From the IMG/VR virus record IMGVR_UViG_2541047880_000005: DNA of 30,413 nt. One strand, written 5' to 3'. Both the position numbers and the translations under genes were made by a program. The notes under the pieces are model-generated. The model was not told the origin of the DNA. It did no database searches and saw only the letters and a list, made by a program, of their open reading frames with translations. This DNA is from a virus. Lineage: Duplodnaviria > Heunggongvirae > Uroviricota > Caudoviricetes. Below are positions 1 through 30,413 of this stretch, piece by piece; position 1 is the first letter of the stretch, and every line of letters begins with the position of its first letter.

Positions 1-981
1 TTATAACGTCACTCCGCCTTTTAGTGGATTCAGAGCGACGGCATTTTGCAGATAGTCAGGCGCAAGGTGCGCATAGGCCATCGTCTGCTGAATGCTCGCA
101 TGTCCCAGAATCTGTTGCAGTGCGATTATATTGCCCCCATTCATCATGAAATGGCTTGCGAATGTATGCCGCAGGATGTGGGTTGCCTGATTGGGTGGTA
201 TATCAGGTTTCACTCTGCGTAAAATCCCGCAAAATTTCTCATAATCAACTTTGAATAATTTGGCGCTGGCCTCCTCTTTAACTTTTTTCTCCAGTTCCTC
301 AGAAATCGGCACGGTTCGCTTTTTACCGTTTTTGGTTTTCAGGAAGGTAACCCTGCAATTTGTAATCTGTGCTGGTTTTAGCGTGGCAACTTCCGTCCAT
401 CTTCCTCCAGTGCTCAGACATAAAAGCGCGACAAGTAAGTCATCACCAGCCAAAACATTTAACAGTTTTTCGATTTCTGCTTTTTCCAGGAACGTCATTT
501 CAGGGTTGGCCTCCGCCAGTGGCGGCAGTCCGTGAATTGGGTGTTGCCCGGAAAATTCATCCAATTGAATTAATTTTGTGAACATGCCGGATAATCGGTA
601 CATGTCACGGTTTATCGTTGCGGCACTGATACCATCACGTAGTCGCATGGAACGATAATCCATCAAAGCCCTTTTGCTCATCCTGCTCACTGGTATATCA
701 CCTATGCCGCTGATGGTTTTGAGTAGATGATTAAACTCTTTTGTTCCATGCTCGTGGTTTTGCCCGTGATATTTCCACCAGATGTCCAGCAACTCACTCA
801 AAGTCCGGCGGTCTGCTCGCTGGCCTCCCCATTCTTTCTGACTGGCATTGGCGATTGTGTATCGCTCAAATGCTAGTGCTTCAGCTTTTCTTTCGAATTT
901 CCTGCGGATGCGTTTTCCGTCGCGACCGCGAGGTCTAATGTCCACTTCATAGCGACCATCATCGAGCTTCTTAATTGCCAT
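1..981 (-). CDS. int: Tyrosine recombinase, P2-type prophage integrase. Start chosen at the MAIKKL ATG (981), which has a GGAGG Shine-Dalgarno 8 nt upstream; the longer ORF from the ATG at 1011 has none.
   Basis: ORF track 1..1011 minus strand. N-terminus MAIKKLDDGRYEVDIRPRG resembles P2 Int as I recall it. C-terminus carries the tyrosine recombinase box (LRHTFASHF ... LGHASIQQTMAYAHL). First gene of the prophage, followed by C and cox as in P2. Confidence 0.9.
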   Translation of the reverse strand: MAIKKLDDGRYEVDIRPRGRDGKRIRRKFERKAEALAFERYTIANASQKEWGGQRADRRTLSELLDIWWKYHGQNHEHGTKEFNHLLKTISGIGDIPVSRMSKRALMDYRSMRLRDGISAATINRDMYRLSGMFTKLIQLDEFSGQHPIHGLPPLAEANPEMTFLEKAEIEKLLNVLAGDDLLVALLCLSTGGRWTEVATLKPAQITNCRVTFLKTKNGKKRTVPISEELEKKVKEEASAKLFKVDYEKFCGILRRVKPDIPPNQATHILRHTFASHFMMNGGNIIALQQILGHASIQQTMAYAHLAPDYLQNAVALNPLKGGVTL

Positions 982-1050
982 AAGAAAGCCCTCCGGCGCT
1001 GTATTCACCATCTTGGTAGCAAATGGTGAAAATGTAATCTTTATATAGAG

Positions 1051-3509: not shown

Positions 3510-5784
3510 AGCCTCCGGGCGTTTTGTCCCTCCGTCAGCATTTGCCGCAGGCACCGGTAAGGCGTTTACCGGTGCTTATGCATGGAACGCGCCACGCGAG
3601 GCCGTCGGGCGGGAAAGACCCCTTACACGTGACGAGATGCGTCAGGTGCAAGGTGTTTTATCCACGATTAACCGCCTGCCTTACTTTTTGCGCTCGCTGT
3701 TTACTTCACGCTATGACTACATCCGGCGCAATAAAAGCCCGGTGCACGGGTTTTATTTCCTCACATCCACTTTTCAGCGTCGTTTATGGCCGCGCATTGA
3801 GCGTGTGAATCAGCGCCATGAAATGAACACCGACGCGTCGTTGCTGTTTCTGGCAGAGCGCGACCAGTATGCGCGCCTGCCGGGGATGAATGACAAGGAG
3901 CTGAAAAAGTTTGCCGCCCGAATCTCATCGCAGCTTTTCATGATGTATGAGGAACTCTGCGATGCCTGGGTGGATGCGCATGGCGAAAAAGAATCGCTGT
4001 TTACGGATGAGGCGCAGGCTCACCTGTATGGTCATGTTGCTGGCGCTGCACGTGCTTTCAATATTTCCCCGCTTTACTGGAGAAAATACCGTAAAGGGCA
4101 GATGACCACGAGGCAGGCATATTCTGCCATTGCCCGCCTGTTTAACGATGAGTGGTGGATTAGTCAGCTTAAAGGCCAGCGTATGCGCTGGCATGAGGCG
4201 TTACTGATTGCTGTCGGGGGGGTCAATAAAGACCGTTCACCTTATGCCAGTAAACATGCCATTCGTGATGTGCGTGCGCGCCGCCAGGCAAATCTGGAAT
4301 TTCTTAAATCGTGTGACCTTGAAAACAGGGAAACCGGCGAGCGCATCGACCTTATCAGTAAGGTGATGGGCAGTATTTCTAATCCTGAAATTCGCCGGAT
4401 GGAGCTGATGAACACCATTGCCGGTATTGAGCGTTACGCCGCCTCAGAGGGTGATGTGGGGATGTTTATCACGCTTACCGCGCCGTCAAAGTATCACCCG
4501 ACACGTCAGGTTGGAAAAGGCGAAAATAAAACCGTCCAGCTTAATCACGGCTGGAATGATGAGGCATTTAATCCAAAGGATGCGCAGCGTTATCTCTGCC
4601 GTATCTGGAGCCTGATGCGCACGGCATTCAAGGATAATGATTTACAGGTCTACGGTTTGCGAGTCGTCGAGCCACACCACGACGGAACGCCGCACTGGCA
4701 TATGATGCTTTTTTGTAATCCACGCCAGCGTAACCAGATTATCGAAATCATGCGTCGCTATGCGCTCAAAGAGGATGGCGACGAAAGAGGAGCCGCGCGA
4801 AACCGTTTTCAGGCAAAACACCTTAACCGGGGCGGTGCTGCGGGATATATCGCGAAATACATTTCAAAAAATATCGACGGCTATGCACTGGATGGTCAGC
4901 TCGATAACGATACCGGCAGACCGCTGAAAGATACTGCGGCGGCTGTTACCGCATGGGCGTCAACGTGGCGCATCCCGCAATTTAAAACGGTTGGCCTGCC
5001 GACAATGGGAGCTTACCGTGAGCTACGTAAATTGCCTCGCGGCGTCAGCATTGCTGATGAATTTGACGAACGCGTGGAGGCTGCACGCGCCGCCGCAGAC
5101 AGTGGCGATTTTGCGTTGTATATCAGCGCGCAGGGCGGGGCAAATGTCCCGCGCGATTGTCAGACTGTCAGGGTCGCTCGTAGCCCGTCGGATGAAGTTA
5201 ACGAGTACGAGGAAGAAGTCGAGAGAGTGGTCGGCATTTACGCGCCGCATCTCGGCGCGCGTCATATTCATATCACCAGAACGACGGACTGGCGCATCGT
5301 GCCGAAAGTTCCGGTCGTTGAGCCTTTGACTTTAAAAAGCGGCATCGCCGCGCCTCGGAGTCCTGTCAATAACTGTGGAAAGCTCAACGGTGGTGATACT
5401 TCGTTACCGGCTCCCACACCTTCTGAGCACGCCGCAGCAGTGCTTAATCTGGTAGATGACGGTGTTATCGAATGGAGTGACCCGGAGGTTGTGAGGGCGC
5501 TCAGAGGTGCATTAAAACACGGACTGAGAACACCACATTGTCAGCCAAGAAACGGAAGCCCGTTAAAACCACATGAAATTGCACCATCGGCCAGACTGAC
5601 CCGGTCGGAAAGAATGCAAATCACCCGTATCCGCGTTGACCTTGCTCAGAACGGTATCAGGCCGCAGCGATGGGAGCTTGAGGCGCTGGTGCGTGGCGCG
5701 ACCGTAAATTATGACGGGAAAAAATTCACGTATCCGGTCGCTGATGAGTGGCCGGGATTCTCAACAGTAATGGAGTGGACATGA
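3499..5784 (+). CDS. A: Replication initiation endonuclease A (rolling-circle HUH nickase), P2 gpA homologue
   Basis: ORF track 3457..5784. Starting at the MAVKASG ATG (3499) gives 761 aa, the P2 gpA length. HUH motif (GTPHWHMMLF, about 4690..4710) and tyrosine motif (GYIAKYISKN, about 4840..4870) are visible. Confidence 0.9.
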   Translation: MAVKASGRFVPPSAFAAGTGKAFTGAYAWNAPREAVGRERPLTRDEMRQVQGVLSTINRLPYFLRSLFTSRYDYIRRNKSPVHGFYFLTSTFQRRLWPRIERVNQRHEMNTDASLLFLAERDQYARLPGMNDKELKKFAARISSQLFMMYEELCDAWVDAHGEKESLFTDEAQAHLYGHVAGAARAFNISPLYWRKYRKGQMTTRQAYSAIARLFNDEWWISQLKGQRMRWHEALLIAVGGVNKDRSPYASKHAIRDVRARRQANLEFLKSCDLENRETGERIDLISKVMGSISNPEIRRMELMNTIAGIERYAASEGDVGMFITLTAPSKYHPTRQVGKGENKTVQLNHGWNDEAFNPKDAQRYLCRIWSLMRTAFKDNDLQVYGLRVVEPHHDGTPHWHMMLFCNPRQRNQIIEIMRRYALKEDGDERGAARNRFQAKHLNRGGAAGYIAKYISKNIDGYALDGQLDNDTGRPLKDTAAAVTAWASTWRIPQFKTVGLPTMGAYRELRKLPRGVSIADEFDERVEAARAAADSGDFALYISAQGGANVPRDCQTVRVARSPSDEVNEYEEEVERVVGIYAPHLGARHIHITRTTDWRIVPKVPVVEPLTLKSGIAAPRSPVNNCGKLNGGDTSLPAPTPSEHAAAVLNLVDDGVIEWSDPEVVRALRGALKHGLRTPHCQPRNGSPLKPHEIAPSARLTRSERMQITRIRVDLAQNGIRPQRWELEALVRGATVNYDGKKFTYPVADEWPGFSTVMEWT

Positions 5785-6236
5785 TGGCAAAAATTCACGA
5801 GGTAAAGCTGCACGCAAAATATTTTGACCTTGTGCTGGAAGGAAAGAAACGCGCAGAGTTTCGGAAAAATGACCGTAATTATGAGCGCGGGGACACGTTG
5901 ATTTTGCATGAATGGGCGCAGGGTGTGTATACGGAGCGAAAGGTTGAAGCCCGGATAACAGATGTTACTGACCTGTCAGACTGGCTGGAAGATTATGTCT
6001 TGCTAAGTATTGAGCTGCTTAATACAGGCGCATATGAGATTGTGAACTGGAAAGAACTTAGTGAGCGTGGTCTGGTATTCAGAATTAATCATGAAATTAT
6101 GCATCAGCTCGGCCTTGCTGTTATGTATGCACCAGAGACGGGGATGTCTGGCGGGGCAATGGTTGCCACGGATGGAGCATGGAACTATTCAGATGAACAG
6201 ATTGAGCGTGCAAAGCAAAACGGGTGGCTTGGATAA
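5781..6236 (+). CDS. Hypothetical protein with an N-terminal ASCH/PUA-like region (tentative)
   Basis: ORF track 5748..6236. ATG at 5781 overlaps the A stop (ATGATG). N-terminus MAKIHEVKLHAKYFDLVLEGKKRAEFRKNDRNYERGDTLILHEW resembles ASCH-type domains; this is a judgement from the sequence, not a search result. GC content is phage-like. Confidence 0.55.
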   Translation: MMAKIHEVKLHAKYFDLVLEGKKRAEFRKNDRNYERGDTLILHEWAQGVYTERKVEARITDVTDLSDWLEDYVLLSIELLNTGAYEIVNWKELSERGLVFRINHEIMHQLGLAVMYAPETGMSGGAMVATDGAWNYSDEQIERAKQNGWLG

Positions 6237-6657: not shown

Positions 6658-7260
6658 ATGTTATTAATGAATGAGAAAAAAAGACAAAAATATCTAAAGA
6701 TAATGTTTGAATGTCAAAAGCGACTTGAAACACTTCATGCTTTATCATCTGGAAGGATTGATGGCATTTATTTTCAAGTGTTAATTGAAATGGAGGCGTT
6801 GCAGCTTAGGAAGCTACTAGAGCTCATTGCATTTTCATCTCTAATTTCACATGAAAAAGCATACGAGAAGGTTACAAAGAAGATTGATGGTGTATGGAAG
6901 GCGAAGAATATATTTAAAGAGTTGGAAAAGATAAACCCTAACTTTTATCCAGTACCAATATCAGGAGTAACCAAAACGGGCTGGACGAAACTAACGGGAG
7001 GTTTTTTGACGAAAAAACAGTTTATCAAGCTATATGATGAATGCTCAAAACATATTCACGTAAGGAACCCATATCGGGTTAGGGAAAACTCGCTGGGGTT
7101 TCATAAAAAAGTTCCAGAGTATTTATCAAGAATTGAAACTCTACTGTTAAAGCACATTGTTTCTCTTGCCGGGAATGAAGAACTTCTTCTTGTAGATGTG
7201 CCTCATTATGAAGACTCTGTAACAGCTATAAAAATGAGCCACCTCGTTAAAATGGGGTGA
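6658..7260 (+). CDS. Hypothetical 200-aa protein of unknown family; AT-rich accessory cargo in the P2 tin/old hotspot next to cos. Candidate anti-phage defence or abortive-infection gene.
   Basis: Uninterrupted 200-codon ORF, much more AT-rich than the flanking phage genes (first 60 nt have only 12 G or C). Preceded by a 215-bp non-coding AT-rich leader. Lies between the replication module and cos, where P2 carries tin and old. Predicted lysine-rich and probably helical. Contains an R-x6-H string (RENSLGFH, nt 7081..7104) that is compatible with, but does not prove, a HEPN-type motif. Confidence 0.7.
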   Translation: MLLMNEKKRQKYLKIMFECQKRLETLHALSSGRIDGIYFQVLIEMEALQLRKLLELIAFSSLISHEKAYEKVTKKIDGVWKAKNIFKELEKINPNFYPVPISGVTKTGWTKLTGGFLTKKQFIKLYDECSKHIHVRNPYRVRENSLGFHKKVPEYLSRIETLLLKHIVSLAGNEELLLVDVPHYEDSVTAIKMSHLVKMG

Positions 7261-18806: not shown

Positions 18807-19329
18807 TTCGCGCCTGCTGCCGACCGGCTCATCACCGCTTGAGGTCGCCGCCGCAAAAGCCTGTGCGGAAATTGAAAAAACGCCGGTCAGTATTCGTGAG
18901 CTGTGGAACCCGGATGCCTGTCCGGCAAATCTGCTGCCGTGGCTGGCGTGGGCGTTTTCGGTCGACAGGTGGGATGAAAAGTGGCCGGAAGCAACAAAAC
19001 GCGCCGTTATCCGCGATGCGTATTTCATTCACTGCCATAAGGGCACTATAGGCGCAATCCGGCGTGTGGTGGAGCCGCTCGGCTATCTCATTAACGTAAA
19101 GGAATGGTGGGAGACAAACGACCCGCCCGGCACTTTCCGGCTTGATATCGGCGTACTGGAAAGCGGTATCACAGAGGAAATGTATCTGGAAATGGAACGG
19201 CTGATTGCCGATGCCAAACCCGCAAGTCGCCACCTTATCGGTCTGAACATTATCCAGGACATTCCCGGCTATCTGTATACAGGCGGTGTGGTCTGTGATG
19301 GTGATGTTATTACTGTTTATCCCGGATAA
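18799..19329 (+). CDS. I: Baseplate/tail-fibre attachment protein, P2 gpI homologue
   Basis: 176 aa, the P2 I length; overlaps the J stop. Confidence 0.85.
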   Translation: MSDSRLLPTGSSPLEVAAAKACAEIEKTPVSIRELWNPDACPANLLPWLAWAFSVDRWDEKWPEATKRAVIRDAYFIHCHKGTIGAIRRVVEPLGYLINVKEWWETNDPPGTFRLDIGVLESGITEEMYLEMERLIADAKPASRHLIGLNIIQDIPGYLYTGGVVCDGDVITVYPG

Positions 19330-19339
19330 GTGAGAAACA

Positions 19340-21961
19340 ATGAGCACGAAATTTAAAACCGTTATCACTACTGCCGGAGCCGCAAAGCTGGCAGCCGCCA
19401 CTGTCCCCGGCGGGAAAAAAGTAAACCTGTCTGCAATGGCCGTGGGTGACGGTAATGGCAAATTACCGGTGCCGGATGCCGGTCAGACGAAACTGGTACA
19501 TGAGGTCTGGCGTCACGCTCTGAATAAAGTCAGTGTGGATAATAAGAATAAAAACTATATTGTGGCTGAACTGGTTGTACCGCCCGAAGTGGGCGGCTTC
19601 TGGATGCGTGAGCTTGGTCTGTATGACGATGCCGGAACACTGATTGCGGTATCCAACATGGCAGAAAGCTATAAGCCAGAACTGGCTGAAGGCTCCGGAC
19701 GTGCGCAGACCTGCCGCATGGTTATTATTCTCAGCAATGTGGCGTCCGTTGAGCTGAGTATTGATGCCAGCACAGTGATGGCGACGCAGGATTATGTCGA
19801 TGACAAAATCGCAGAGCATGAGCAGTCCCGCCGCCATCCTGACGCCACGCTGACAGAAAAAGGTTTTACTCAGTTAAGCAGTGCAACAAACAGCACCAGT
19901 GAAAAGCTGGCGGCAACGCCAAAGGCAGTAAAAGCAGCCTATGACAATGCTGAGAAACGTCTGCAGAAAGACCAGAACGGTGACGATATTCCAGATAAGG
20001 GCGCTTTTCTGGACAATATTGGCGTTACCAGCCTGACGTTTATGAAACACAATGGAATGATTCCAACCACTGACAATCTTGACTCCTATGGCCCAGAAGA
20101 AAAATATCTTGGAACGTGGTCATGTCCGTCACAATCCACTGCAAAACCAGAGTCTGGTTACCCTGAAGATAAAGGCAATGGGGTTCTGGAAGTATTCAAT
20201 GCTGGTCGCTTTCACTGCACACAACGCTACACCACCCGAACCGGTAATATTTACATTCGGATGCTTGATGCAGAATGGAACCCAGCCAGTCCAACATGGA
20301 GTGCATGGAGAGTTATTACAAGCGGGACTCGACCATTAAGCACGTCAATTGACCTGAATTCTTTAGGTGGTGCGGAACACCTGGGAATATGGCGCAATAG
20401 CAGTACATCAATAGCCTCATTTGACCGTCATTTCCCGGAGGAAGGGAGTTTTGGGCAGGGTATTCTGGAAGTCTTTGAAGGCGGTCTGTATGGGAGGATG
20501 CAACGTTACACCACCCGTAGTGGGACTATGTACATTCGCGGACTGACTGCCTCATGGGATGCAGAAAATCCACAATGGGAGGACTGGATTGCTGTTGGGT
20601 ATCAGTCCACGGGATGGACTTATTCAGGGGATCTTGATGACCTTTTAAAGCCTGGTATTTATAGCGTTACGAAACAGGCCACAAATGCACCTGTCACCGA
20701 CTCTAAAGATCTTGCTGTTGGCTCAATAGTTGAAGTGAAAAAACGTTGTGATATTGAATCGTATATCCAGACATACACGACTGTTTCAGCAACGGATGCC
20801 TATAAAAACCGGACATTTCAGCGAACCCGCGCCAGCGGTGAAACTGACTGGGGGGAATGGGCGGAAGTATACAACTCAAAATCATTACTCACTAAATTAG
20901 GTGTCGGCGGTGTTACCGACAGGTTATCCAGTCTGGACTGGCAGACCTACGACTTTATACCGGGCAGCATGATAACTGTCAGGCTTTCAGATATGACCAA
21001 TATTCCCGATGGGATGGAATGGGGCGTCATTGATACTAACCTGATAAATATCACTGTTGGCCCCAGTGAAGGCGGAGGTGTCGCCCGTTCAATGCATGTA
21101 TGGCGCAGCACTTCAAACAAAACCAACTATCGTTTTTTTACAGTCCGCTTATATGGCAATCCTGGGGAGCGTAGCTTCAATATTCGTCGGCTACCAATCA
21201 TTGACGAAGCCCAGACATGGGGCGCGAAACAGACATTCAGCGGTGGCCTTTCTGGTGAGCTGTCAGGCAATGCTGCTACAGCAACAAAGCTGAAAACGGC
21301 AAGGACAATTAACGGCGTAAAATTTGACGGCTCGGCAAATATTGAAGCGTTTCCGCCAGGTGTTCCGCTGCCGTGGCCATCAGATACACCACCTGCAGGC
21401 TATGCAATTATGCAGGGGCAGACGTTTGATAAGGCAGCATATCCTAAACTGGCTATTGCCTATCCTTCTGGTGTTATTCCAGATATGCGCGGCTGGACAA
21501 TCAAGGGCAAACCCGCCAGTGGACGTGCTGTATTGTCACAGGAACAGGACGGGATTAAATCGCATACTCACAGCGCCAGTGCGTCAAATACGGATTTAGG
21601 GACGAAAACGACCAGTTCATTTGATTACGGCACGAAGACAGTCAGTACGTTTAACCATGGCACAAAATCAACGAACAATACGGGCAATCATACGCACACT
21701 GTCGGTGGTGTTTATGGCGGCGACTCTGTCGGTGGAAAACAGCGTGTACAGGCTTCAGGAAACAATCAGGTGTCCAGCACAGCCGGAGCGCACGCCCATA
21801 CGGTGGATATTGGTCAGCATAACCACACTGTAGGTATTGGTGCCCATGCACACACTGTAGCATTAGGTGCGCACGGGCACACCATCACGGTAAATGCTAC
21901 GGGTAATACCGAAAACACCGTCAAAAACATCGCATTTAACTATATTGTGAGGCTTGCATAA
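19340..21961 (+). CDS. H: Tail fibre protein (gpH-like), 873 aa. Has an internal tandem domain duplication and a His-rich HxH-repeat C-terminus.
   Basis: Position after I and before G. Longer than P2 H (which I recall as about 669 aa). Duplicated segment about 20181..20317 and 20459..20596. HxH repeats about 21560..21900. Confidence 0.85.
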
Positions 21962-22539
21962 TGGCTTTCAGAATGAGTGCAGAAGCACAAACTATCCGCG
22001 TTTTCAATTTACTTAATGGAACCAATGAGTTTATTGGCGAAAGTGATGCATATATTCCGCCGTATACTGGCCTGCCTGCAAACAGTACAGATATTGCACC
22101 ACCTGATATTCCTGCTGGTTATGCAGCCGTTTTCAATGCAGATGAAATGAAATGGGAACTGATGGAAGACCATCGCGGAAAGACCGTCTACGAAACGAAA
22201 ACAGGAGCAGCCATTTATATTTCTGAACTTGGCGTATTACCTCCAGACGTGACAGCTATTTCCCCGGAGGGGGATTATCAGAAATGGGACGGAAATGCGT
22301 GGGTGAATGATGAGAATGCAGAACGTGATGCGCTTGTCAGAGCGGCGGAGTCTCAGAAGAAAGAGCAGATTGCATATGCAGGTGAAATTATTGCCACTCT
22401 GCAGGATGCTGTCGATTTAGATATGGCTACCGAGGAAGAAAAGTTAAGCCTGACACACTGGAAAAAATACCGTGTGCTACTGAATCGCGTTCAGCCGGAA
22501 AATGCCCCGGATATTGAATGGCCGGAACTACCGCAATAA
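21961..22539 (+). CDS. G: Tail fibre assembly chaperone, P2 gpG homologue
   Basis: 192 aa; start overlaps the H stop (TAATG); canonical position. Confidence 0.8.
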
Positions 22540-22544
22540 ACACA

Positions 22545-22570
22545 GGCGGGCTTATTGTCCGCTTTTTCTT
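22545..22570 (+). terminator. Probable intrinsic terminator after G: imperfect GC hairpin (GGCGGGCTTATTGTCCGC) followed by TTTTTCTTT
   Basis: Read directly from the sequence; lies at the end of the V-to-G operon and before the FI promoter region. Confidence 0.55.
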
Positions 22571-22671
22571 TATCGGTGGTTGTGCTGTCGATTAGCCAAC
22601 CGGGACAAATAGCCTGACATCTCCGGCACAACTGAAAATACCACTCACCCATTAACCACGGAGTTAAACGG

Positions 22672-28974: not shown

Positions 28975-29055
28975 TGTAATTTATTTATCTGTTTGTTTTA
29001 TAAGGATAAATTAACTAAAATGGCACTATCAACAAAACCGGAAGAGGTGCTCGCG

Positions 29056-29274
29056 ATGTTTCATTGTCCTTTATGCCAGCATGCCGCACATGCGCGTACA
29101 AGCCGCTATATCACTGACACGACAAAAGAGCGTTATCACCAGTGTCAGAACGTGAATTGCAGCGCCACGTTCATCACCTATGAGTCGGTACAGAGATACA
29201 TCGTGAAGCCGGGAGAAGTCCACGCCGTAAGGCCGCACCCGTTGCCGTCAGGGCAGCAAATTATGTGGATGTGA
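29056..29274 (+). CDS. ogr: Ogr, zinc-finger late-gene transcription activator
   Basis: Within ORF track 28993..29274. Starting at MFHCPLCQHAAHARTSRYITDTTKERYHQCQNVNC (29056) gives 72 aa, the P2 Ogr length, with the C4 zinc-finger cysteines. Last phage gene before the host junction, as in P2. Confidence 0.9.
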   Translation: MFHCPLCQHAAHARTSRYITDTTKERYHQCQNVNCSATFITYESVQRYIVKPGEVHAVRPHPLPSGQQIMWM

Positions 29275-29284
29275 TCACAAAAAT

Positions 29285-29310
29285 AGCCCCTCAGTTGAGG
29301 GGCTTTATTT
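29285..29310 (+). terminator. Intrinsic terminator after ogr: AGCCCCTC AGTT GAGGGGCT hairpin followed by TTATTT
   Basis: Perfect 8-bp stem with a 4-nt loop, 10 nt after the ogr stop. Confidence 0.7.
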
Positions 29311-29402
29311 ATGGTCGATGTGGACGCTATGTGGACAGCGGTTGACATAAATCCATTTATATCATCAGGTTAGGTGCTTTTTTTTGACACCATCCCTGTC
29401 TT

Positions 29403-29429
29403 CCCCCACATGATGTGGGGGTTTTTTTT
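29403..29429 (+). terminator. Strong intrinsic terminator: CCCCCACAT G ATGTGGGGG hairpin followed by eight T. Likely the host-side terminator of the gene upstream of fieF, and possibly the 3' end of a 3'-UTR-derived sRNA.
   Basis: Perfect 9-bp stem and T8 run read directly from the sequence, about 80 nt upstream of fieF. Confidence 0.75.
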
Positions 29430-29510
29430 ATCCTCAATTTGCCTGCTGCTTAATGCATTGCAGATGATTTGCTTCCGTTATACTACCATCAGTTGATAGC
29501 GGGAGTATTT

Positions 29511-30413
29511 ATGAATCAATCTTATGGACGGCTGGTCAGTCGGGCGGCGATTGCTGCGACGGCGATGGCTTCGCTGCTATTGCTGATTAAAATTTTTGCA
29601 TGGTGGTATACCGGGTCGGTGAGTATTCTCGCCGCGCTGGTGGATTCGCTGGTGGATATCGGCGCGTCGTTGACGAATTTACTGGTGGTGCGATATTCCC
29701 TGCAACCTGCCGACGATAATCACTCGTTTGGTCACGGTAAAGCTGAGTCCCTCGCGGCGCTGGCGCAAAGTATGTTTATCTCCGGTTCGGCACTATTCCT
29801 GTTTTTGACGGGTATTCAACATCTGGTATCTCCAACACCGATGACAGATCCAGGCGTCGGGGTTATCGTGACAATTGTGGCGCTAATTTGTACGATTATC
29901 CTTGTCTCGTTTCAGCGTTGGGTGGTGCGCCGGACGCAAAGCCAGGCGGTGCGGGCTGATATGCTACATTACCAGTCTGATGTTATGATGAACGGCGCAA
30001 TTCTGCTGGCGCTGGGGTTGTCCTGGTACGGCTGGCATCGCGCCGATGCTCTGTTTGCATTGGGGATCGGCATCTATATTTTATATAGCGCGTTACGCAT
30101 GGGATATGAGGCGGTACAGTCATTACTGGATCGCGCATTACCTGATGAGGAACGGCAAGAAATTATTGATATCGTGACTTCCTGGCCGGGTGTTAGCGGC
30201 GCTCACGATCTTCGCACGCGGCAGTCAGGGCCGACCCGCTTTATTCAGATTCATTTGGAAATGGAAGACTCTCTGCCTTTGGTTCAGGCACATATGGTGG
30301 CGGATCAGGTAGAGCAGGCTATTTTACGGCGTTTTCCGGGATCGGATGTGATTATCCATCAGGACCCCTGTTCCGTCGTACCCAGGGAGGGTAAACGGTC
30401 TATGCTTTCATAA
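29511..30413 (+). CDS. fieF: Cation-diffusion-facilitator family Fe/Zn efflux transporter FieF (YiiP); host chromosomal gene
   Basis: 300-aa ORF (track 29469..30413, ATG at 29511). Multi-pass membrane protein with a C-terminal cytoplasmic domain; the sequence matches E. coli FieF/YiiP as I recall it. Marks the host flank to the right of the prophage. Confidence 0.9.

Follow-up and report, generated by a model that had tools for sequence, protein, structure and literature searches.

The mosaicism of P2-family tail fibres, the hybrid fibre of L-413C and the lambda/T4 cassette of tip plus chaperone are textbook cases of horizontal exchange. The gpH of Yersinia phage L-413C has been published as a four-part mosaic fibre of the P2 family (Garcia et al., 2008, as summarised in PMC7460101). 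In T4, the C-terminus of g37 and g38 came from lambda-like sequences, and gp38 and gp57 are described as chaperones (PMC3157838). The needle of T4 gp37 contains seven Fe ions that are coordinated by HxH triplets and are needed for folding, and the LPS and OmpC contacts of gp37 were mapped by mutagenesis to its subdomain 932-959 (PMC6957217). P2 can also be retargeted to a porin receptor by engineered chimeras in which P2 gpH is joined to gp37 of phage S16 (PMC9594776). We found nothing on P2-like fibres in the BASEL paper.

Here, we analysed tail fibre gene H in a 30,413-nt stretch of DNA (hereafter the window, meaning this whole stretch), which represents a complete P2-like prophage in E. coli. 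Its left end carries an ORF (1..1011) in the integrase position, and its right end carries ogrK and the host gene fieF. The ORF map and collinear matches gave the operon order V-W-J-I-H-G, followed by FI-FII, in synteny with P2, L-413C and P24A7b. H therefore has the place of a P2-family (Peduovirus) gpH in the V-W-J-I-H-G late operon, ahead of FI/FII, and it also carries an N-terminal Phage_tail_fib domain homologous to that of P2 H. A terminator-like hairpin lies 3' of G, as does the annotated terminator of the V operon in P2. An NCBIfam search of H and G returned no family. The best overall explanation is that gpH is very probably the receptor-binding fibre of this E. coli P2-like prophage and is composed of three exchangeable cassettes. 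The features of the locus are collected in Table 1.

Table 1. Features of the H-G region in the window. Coordinates are nucleotide positions in the window; aa positions refer to gpH.
Feature	Coordinates	Strand	Evidence
Gene H, tail fibre protein, 873 aa	19340..21961	+	ORF; Pfam Phage_tail_fib, Phage_fiber_2 and Collar; PHROG tail-fibre families; synteny
P2-type N-terminal domain, aa 1-151	19340..19792	+	PF12571, E 3.9e-57; aa 1-204 are 85% identical to P2 H
One Phage_fiber_2 repeat (a 21-residue sequence), aa 170-210, Mu S-like shaft	19847..19969	+	PF03406, E 2.5e-21
Module 1, knob-like domain, aa 240-328	20057..20323	+	BLASTP against module 2; hhalign; AF2 pLDDT 70-85
Module 2, knob-like domain, aa 332-421	20333..20602	+	BLASTP and hhalign against module 1; AF2
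Module 3, diverged third copy, aa 426-517	20615..20890	+	hhalign; pLDDT about 60-80
Module 4, beta-rich domain, aa 524-625	20909..21214	+	hhalign E > 0.3; low-confidence model, pLDDT 30-67
Junction motif (33 residues), aa 636-668, where the match to L-413C H breaks off and the tip cassette begins	21245..21343	+	DNA alignment; blastn end points
Collar domain, aa 674-721	21359..21502	+	PF07484, E 7.2e-10; about 70% identity to the 2XGF collar
Descending needle strands, His boxes H742-x-H744 and H784-x-H786	21563..21697	+	Motif positions; 2XGF alignment
Head/tip loop, hypervariable, aa 787-817, predicted receptor contact	21698..21790	+	P24A7b comparison; T4 alignment
Ascending needle strands, His boxes at aa 818, 827, 836 and 845, and conserved C-terminal 28 aa	21791..21958	+	27/28 identical to T4
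Gene G, tail-fibre assembly chaperone, lambda Tfa type, Caudo_TAP	21961..22539	+	PF02413, E 3.3e-40; 65% to lambda Tfa over 191 aa (full length)
Intrinsic-terminator-like hairpin and T-run, end of the V-W-J-I-H-G operon	22544..22574	+	Sequence

Two gross properties of H had been put forward in an earlier note on this DNA. Its estimate that H is about 200 aa longer than P2 H proved accurate (873 versus 669 aa, a difference of 204 aa). Its description of the 3' half of H as more AT-rich than the 5' half was not borne out, the GC contents being 0.487 and 0.497, respectively. It is the whole H-G block that is AT-richer, with a GC content of 0.46-0.52 versus 0.56-0.575 in the flanking P2 tail genes.

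The first cassette is of P2 type. Similarity to the P2 H protein is limited to aa 1-204, and the blastn match to P2 DNA ends at 19945 (~aa 203), within the Phage_fiber_2 repeat, to resume only at 22543. The repeat region is homologous to the Mu fibre protein S, whose structures 5YVQ and 8JU3 match H aa 167-246 with E values of 2e-15 to 6e-17. Judging from the biology of P2, aa 1-203, that is the P2-type domain and the single Phage_fiber_2 repeat, would anchor the trimer to the baseplate. An invertible segment of the Mu/P1 kind was also considered and rejected: an inverted Sv'/U' pair is absent, G is followed directly by the terminator and then by FI, and the interval 22540-22671 holds no extra ORF.

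The second junction was located by comparison with L-413C and with a further E. coli genome. The gpH of L-413C (NP_839867.1) is 96% identical over aa 1-675, a span that includes the N-terminal domain, the Mu-like repeat and modules 1-4 of the middle part. Beyond it, L-413C has a C-terminus of the P2 H type and a G of the P2 type, whereas the window has a tip of the T4 gp37/lambda Stf type and a G of the lambda Tfa type. At the DNA level, the match to L-413C ends at ~21297-21312, inside a conserved motif made up of a 13-residue stretch and a following FDGS. E. coli FDAARGOS_1337 has the same fibre architecture and the same Tfa-type G downstream. Its DNA shows 0 mismatches over 19300-21100 and differs by about 4% from 21199 through the tip and G, with 2 aa changes in H and 5 in G. 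Most of this divergence is synonymous, as the H proteins (WP_204691545.1 for FDAARGOS_1337) match at 871 of 873 positions. A population-level breakpoint thus lies at the same place as the L-413C junction. Together, the sharp breakpoints against P2, L-413C and T4/lambda support the proposal of the earlier note that H is a mosaic fibre with a horizontally acquired, HxH-rich C-terminal module of the T4 gp37 type that would set host range. The cassettes meet at conserved motifs, namely the Phage_fiber_2 repeat, the 13-residue motif and the His boxes, and these junction motifs probably act as patches of homology for recombination.

The tip cassette was compared with the crystallised tip of T4 gp37 (2XGF), a collar-needle-head fragment to which it is clearly homologous: aa 655-873 matched with an E value of 2.9e-76 and about 62% identity. 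The identity was about 70% in the collar and the first needle strands and dropped to 44% near the head; of the last 28 residues, 27 were identical. The C-terminus of lambda Stf was 60% identical to the tip. The T4 gp37 tip and lambda Stf have in common with H a collar, an HxH needle, a distal head and a near-identical last 28 aa, and the tip of H is accordingly predicted from these alignments to comprise a collar, a needle of intertwined chains and, at the distal end, a small head. The head loop in the window is ~6 residues (net) shorter than that of T4 and about 42 aa shorter than that of lambda, and the proximal part to which the tip is joined is of P2 type, not T-even. Such tips form a family with matches in 621 phage records, and its members occur among T4-like, P2-like and lambdoid phages.

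The repeated C-terminal HxH motifs that had been noticed earlier are real and enriched. There are six in the last 135 aa, at aa 742, 784, 818, 827, 836 and 845, compared with a mean of 1.1 in shuffles of the last 138 aa (p about 1.5e-4). Two lie in the descending and four in the ascending strands, and each is aligned to a box of T4. The second box of T4 is missing in H, where the T4 sequence GGHTHSGS aligns with FNH---GTKS, leaving six boxes versus seven; six metal sites, not seven, would therefore be expected. By homology with T4 gp37, each HxH box would supply two His per chain, so that six octahedral metal sites would line the axis of the trimer. The idea of 'His boxes' in T-even gp37 reportedly goes back to Tetart et al. 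in 1998, and we did not find 'His boxes' of gp37 in the literature searched.

The boxes could also serve mainly as conserved recombination patches for the swapping of hypervariable segments and not as structural metal sites. This reading is possible but doubtful. The only block in which H differs from the P24A7b fibre sits exactly between two His boxes, the DNA across the His boxes is periodic at 27 nt (the three C-terminal boxes form a 9-codon tandem repeat at 21824-21882), and every breakpoint carries conserved motifs. A role as patches is nevertheless compatible with metal binding, given that the HxH triplets of T4 hold the seven Fe ions required for folding (PMC6957217) and that the tip is ~62% identical to that construct.

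The gene downstream of the tip belongs to the same lambda/T4 type. A chaperone gene of the Tfa/gp38 type directly follows H, and its start overlaps the stop of H in the sequence TAATG (within 21941-21980). Through this overlap, translation of G is probably coupled to that of H. G was 96% identical to the G of P24A7b, and about 40% identical to the G of P2 and of L-413C, there in the C-terminal 100 aa only. Because tip and chaperone both match the lambda/T4 type while the G proteins of P2 and L-413C diverge, tip and chaperone travel together as one lambda/T4-type cassette, and the co-transferred G would fold the C-terminal trimer. It is very unlikely that G has an additional role, remaining attached to the tip and taking part in receptor binding or capping it, in the manner of the gp38 adhesin on T2/T6/S16 fibres or of Tfa in its complex with the Mu fibre. 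G does adjoin H with overlapping start and stop, and Mu Tfa-type proteins form stable fibre-tip complexes (PDB 5YVQ), but the part of H that 5YVQ matches is the N-terminal shaft and not the tip. Moreover, G is far closer to lambda Tfa (Table 1) than to the gp38-type chaperone of the T4-like phage PTE-Eco15 (29% identity), and its Pfam and PHROG matches show no resemblance to the gp38 adhesins of T2 type. In T4 itself, gp37 carries the receptor site (PMC6957217), and the role described for gp38 is that of a chaperone (PMC3157838). As to the engineered chimeras, gene H of the window is a natural counterpart of the P2::gp37 design, with a P2 N-terminal part and a T-even-type distal part, but the S16 tip has a gp38 adhesin cap, whereas the window has a self-adhesin tip of the T4/lambda type and a chaperone of the Tfa type.

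The middle cassette (aa 204-655) is of the L-413C type and consists of repeated modules. The earlier note had described two tandem copies of a ~45-aa module. Both peptides are present (aa 281-326 and 374-419; nt 20180-20317 and 20459-20596), but each forms the core of a longer homologous unit, whose true length is ~85-90 aa. Modules 1 and 2 are 42% identical over 83 aa (BLASTP, E 2e-20; hhalign of family sub-alignments, E 9e-30). Module 3 was recognised by hhalign with E values of 5.6e-6 against module 1 and 7.9e-5 against module 2, and module 4 showed no detectable sequence similarity to modules 1-3 by hhalign (E > 0.3). Self-BLASTP of the whole H returned the identity match only, and the repeats were defined by split-sequence BLASTP and hhalign. 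At the DNA level, the only repeat found between the modules is a patch of 14 nt whose copies lie 279 nt apart, so the duplication of the modules must be ancient.

The array is also found well outside this prophage. Searches with aa 230-660 gave 1,088 homologous proteins at E <= 1e-5, with varied N-termini and C-termini. The ordered array of modules 1 to 4 is present in L-413C gpH (96%) and in the gp37-equivalent of the T-even phage JK23, a distal long tail fibre subunit that is 50% identical over 98% of the middle region. It also occurs in fibre proteins with non-P2 N-termini (P0003, P0005, P0023) and in a plasmid-encoded protein, and numerous fibres of E. coli share it. Since the same ordered array is present in such distant fibres, the apparent tandem duplication is, on sequence comparison, an old array of three to four inherited domains and did not arise in this gene. 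That H outgrew P2 H through a recent tandem duplication inside the gene is rejected on these grounds and has next to no probability. The copies are adjacent and clearly homologous, and H does exceed P2 H by the 204 aa noted above; yet proteins just 42% identical, with a DNA repeat confined to 14 nt, do not look like recent copies, and the extra length reflects replacement of the P2 middle part by a different cassette, not duplication.

The fold of the inherited array was approached by modelling. No Pfam or NCBIfam match was obtained within aa 230-650, and when the profile of the middle region was searched against PDB sequences, only Mu S and gp37 matched, at the ends, with no solved knob structure among the hits. 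Many of the middle-region homologues carry the NCBI name 'pyocin knob domain-containing protein'. An AF2 model of aa 225-660 had a mean pLDDT of 65 and a pTM of 0.33, with values of 70-85 in modules 1-3 and a poor module 4. A model of module 2 alone was poorer (pLDDT 58 versus 65 for the whole middle) and was left out of the fold search; the module as cut may be off its true borders, or the trimer may be needed for the fold. With the middle model (pLDDT 65), Foldseek retrieved the R1 pyocin fibre 6CL5 (E 5.9e-6), which indicates a fold similar to the knob/head domains of R-pyocin fibres. Structural alignment to the R-pyocin domains (6CL5, 6CL6 and 6CU2) and to gp47 of Pseudomonas phage Pa193 gave identities of 13-25%, with no sequence-level relation detectable. 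By fold similarity alone, the modules may thus be called knob-like. Pyocin fibres end in a lectin-fold foot (PMC6363177), not in a gp37-type needle as in the window. We propose that three homologous knob-like beta domains and a fourth domain form a rigid beaded shaft, and the modules may add glycan contacts.

As a whole, H is an ordinary mosaic allele that has already been sequenced: a RefSeq protein is 99.8% identical, and the same architecture is present in a catalogued Peduovirus. The fibre of Peduovirus P24A7b (YP_009877362.1) has the same three cassettes, is collinear over its full length with 95% aa identity, and is followed by the same Tfa-type G. The earlier note had taken collinear full-length identity to one known fibre as a sign against recombination. 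Such identity was formally found, in P24A7b (95%) and in FDAARGOS_1337 (871/873), but these are the same mosaic allele, so it speaks against novelty and not against mosaicism.

The comparison with P24A7b also points to the head loop. All substantive difference between the two H proteins falls within aa 788-817, between the His boxes HTHTV and HAHTV; P24A7b in addition has no His at the position of the lost second box (FNYGTK, compared with FNHGTK in the window). The loop aligns to subdomain 932-959 of the T4 gp37 tip and keeps its central VGG motif. The 31-aa head loop between His boxes 784 and 818 is therefore the predicted receptor contact and would determine host range. For the class of receptor, the prior expectation would be set by T4, whose receptors are OmpC and LPS core: a porin and/or the LPS core. 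The T4 contact residues S947, Y949 and Y953, however, fall in deletions of the window protein, and because of this and the missing His box, the receptor may differ from that of T4. This loop allele is rare: among 5,426 complete E. coli genomes, 4 carry it at >=99% identity and 3 more at 85%. The same loop type was found in gp37 of the virulent T4-like phage PTE-Eco15 (79% identity over the last 238 aa; 78.5% in DNA). A more far-reaching view is that the short head loop with six metal sites confers a distinct specificity, perhaps not for the OmpC/LPS-glucose of T4, while the knob modules bind a second, glycan ligand, making H a two-receptor temperate fibre; we consider this view unlikely.

For engineering, the junctions at aa ~203, at aa ~655 and at the His boxes flanking aa 787-817 offer natural points at which P2- or pyocin-type particles may be given T4/lambda-type tips, although the practical value of the H-G junction points is modest. 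For the biology of these phages, the locus shows that one head-loop type is found both in a temperate prophage of the P2 kind and in a virulent phage of the T4 kind.

Approximately 11 substitutions were clustered at window positions 21199..21275 of the tail-fibre gene H, immediately 5′ of the breakpoint at which the DNA match to Yersinia phage L-413C stops. In this patch, the window differs from both L-413C and P24A7b, the Peduovirus whose H is collinear with that of the window, and the encoded protein carries G628 and G635 in place of E and A. The same two residues are the only differences between the H protein of E. coli FDAARGOS_1337 and that of the window. This patch suggests a small extra gene-conversion tract at the cassette junction. 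At the tip, gp37 of the virulent T4-like Escherichia phage vB_EcoM_PTE-Eco15 and the prophage H have in common a short tip with six His boxes (HxH motifs) and the type of head loop; however, the tip partner in PTE-Eco15 is a gp38-type chaperone only 29% identical to the prophage G. Two distant chaperone lineages apparently serve one tip type.

Features located in the window and in PTE-Eco15
Feature	Location	Strand	Description
162-aa ORF	window 5748..6236	+	overlaps the end of gene A; DUF3850/ASCH and DUF7415 domains
200-aa ORF	window 6658..7260	+	in the interval from A (replication) to Q (portal)
G-FI intergenic region	window 22540..22671		132 bp only; predicted terminator, then FI upstream region
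ogrK and host gene fieF	window 28980..30413		right end; matches many E. coli chromosomes at 99.8% identity
gp37 of vB_EcoM_PTE-Eco15	L006 (phage sequence) 1239..4142		T4-like phage

The prophage adjoins fieF, and the near-identity of this right end to many E. coli chromosomes indicates that the host is E. coli. Between G and FI, P2 carries fun(Z) and P24A7b carries three small ORFs, whereas the window has none of these; thus, the G-FI cargo slot is empty. The 200-aa ORF lies in what is presumably the slot of tin/old in P2. Its product had no match in Pfam or PADLOC. This ORF is an unannotated cargo gene, for which an anti-phage or moron role is possible.
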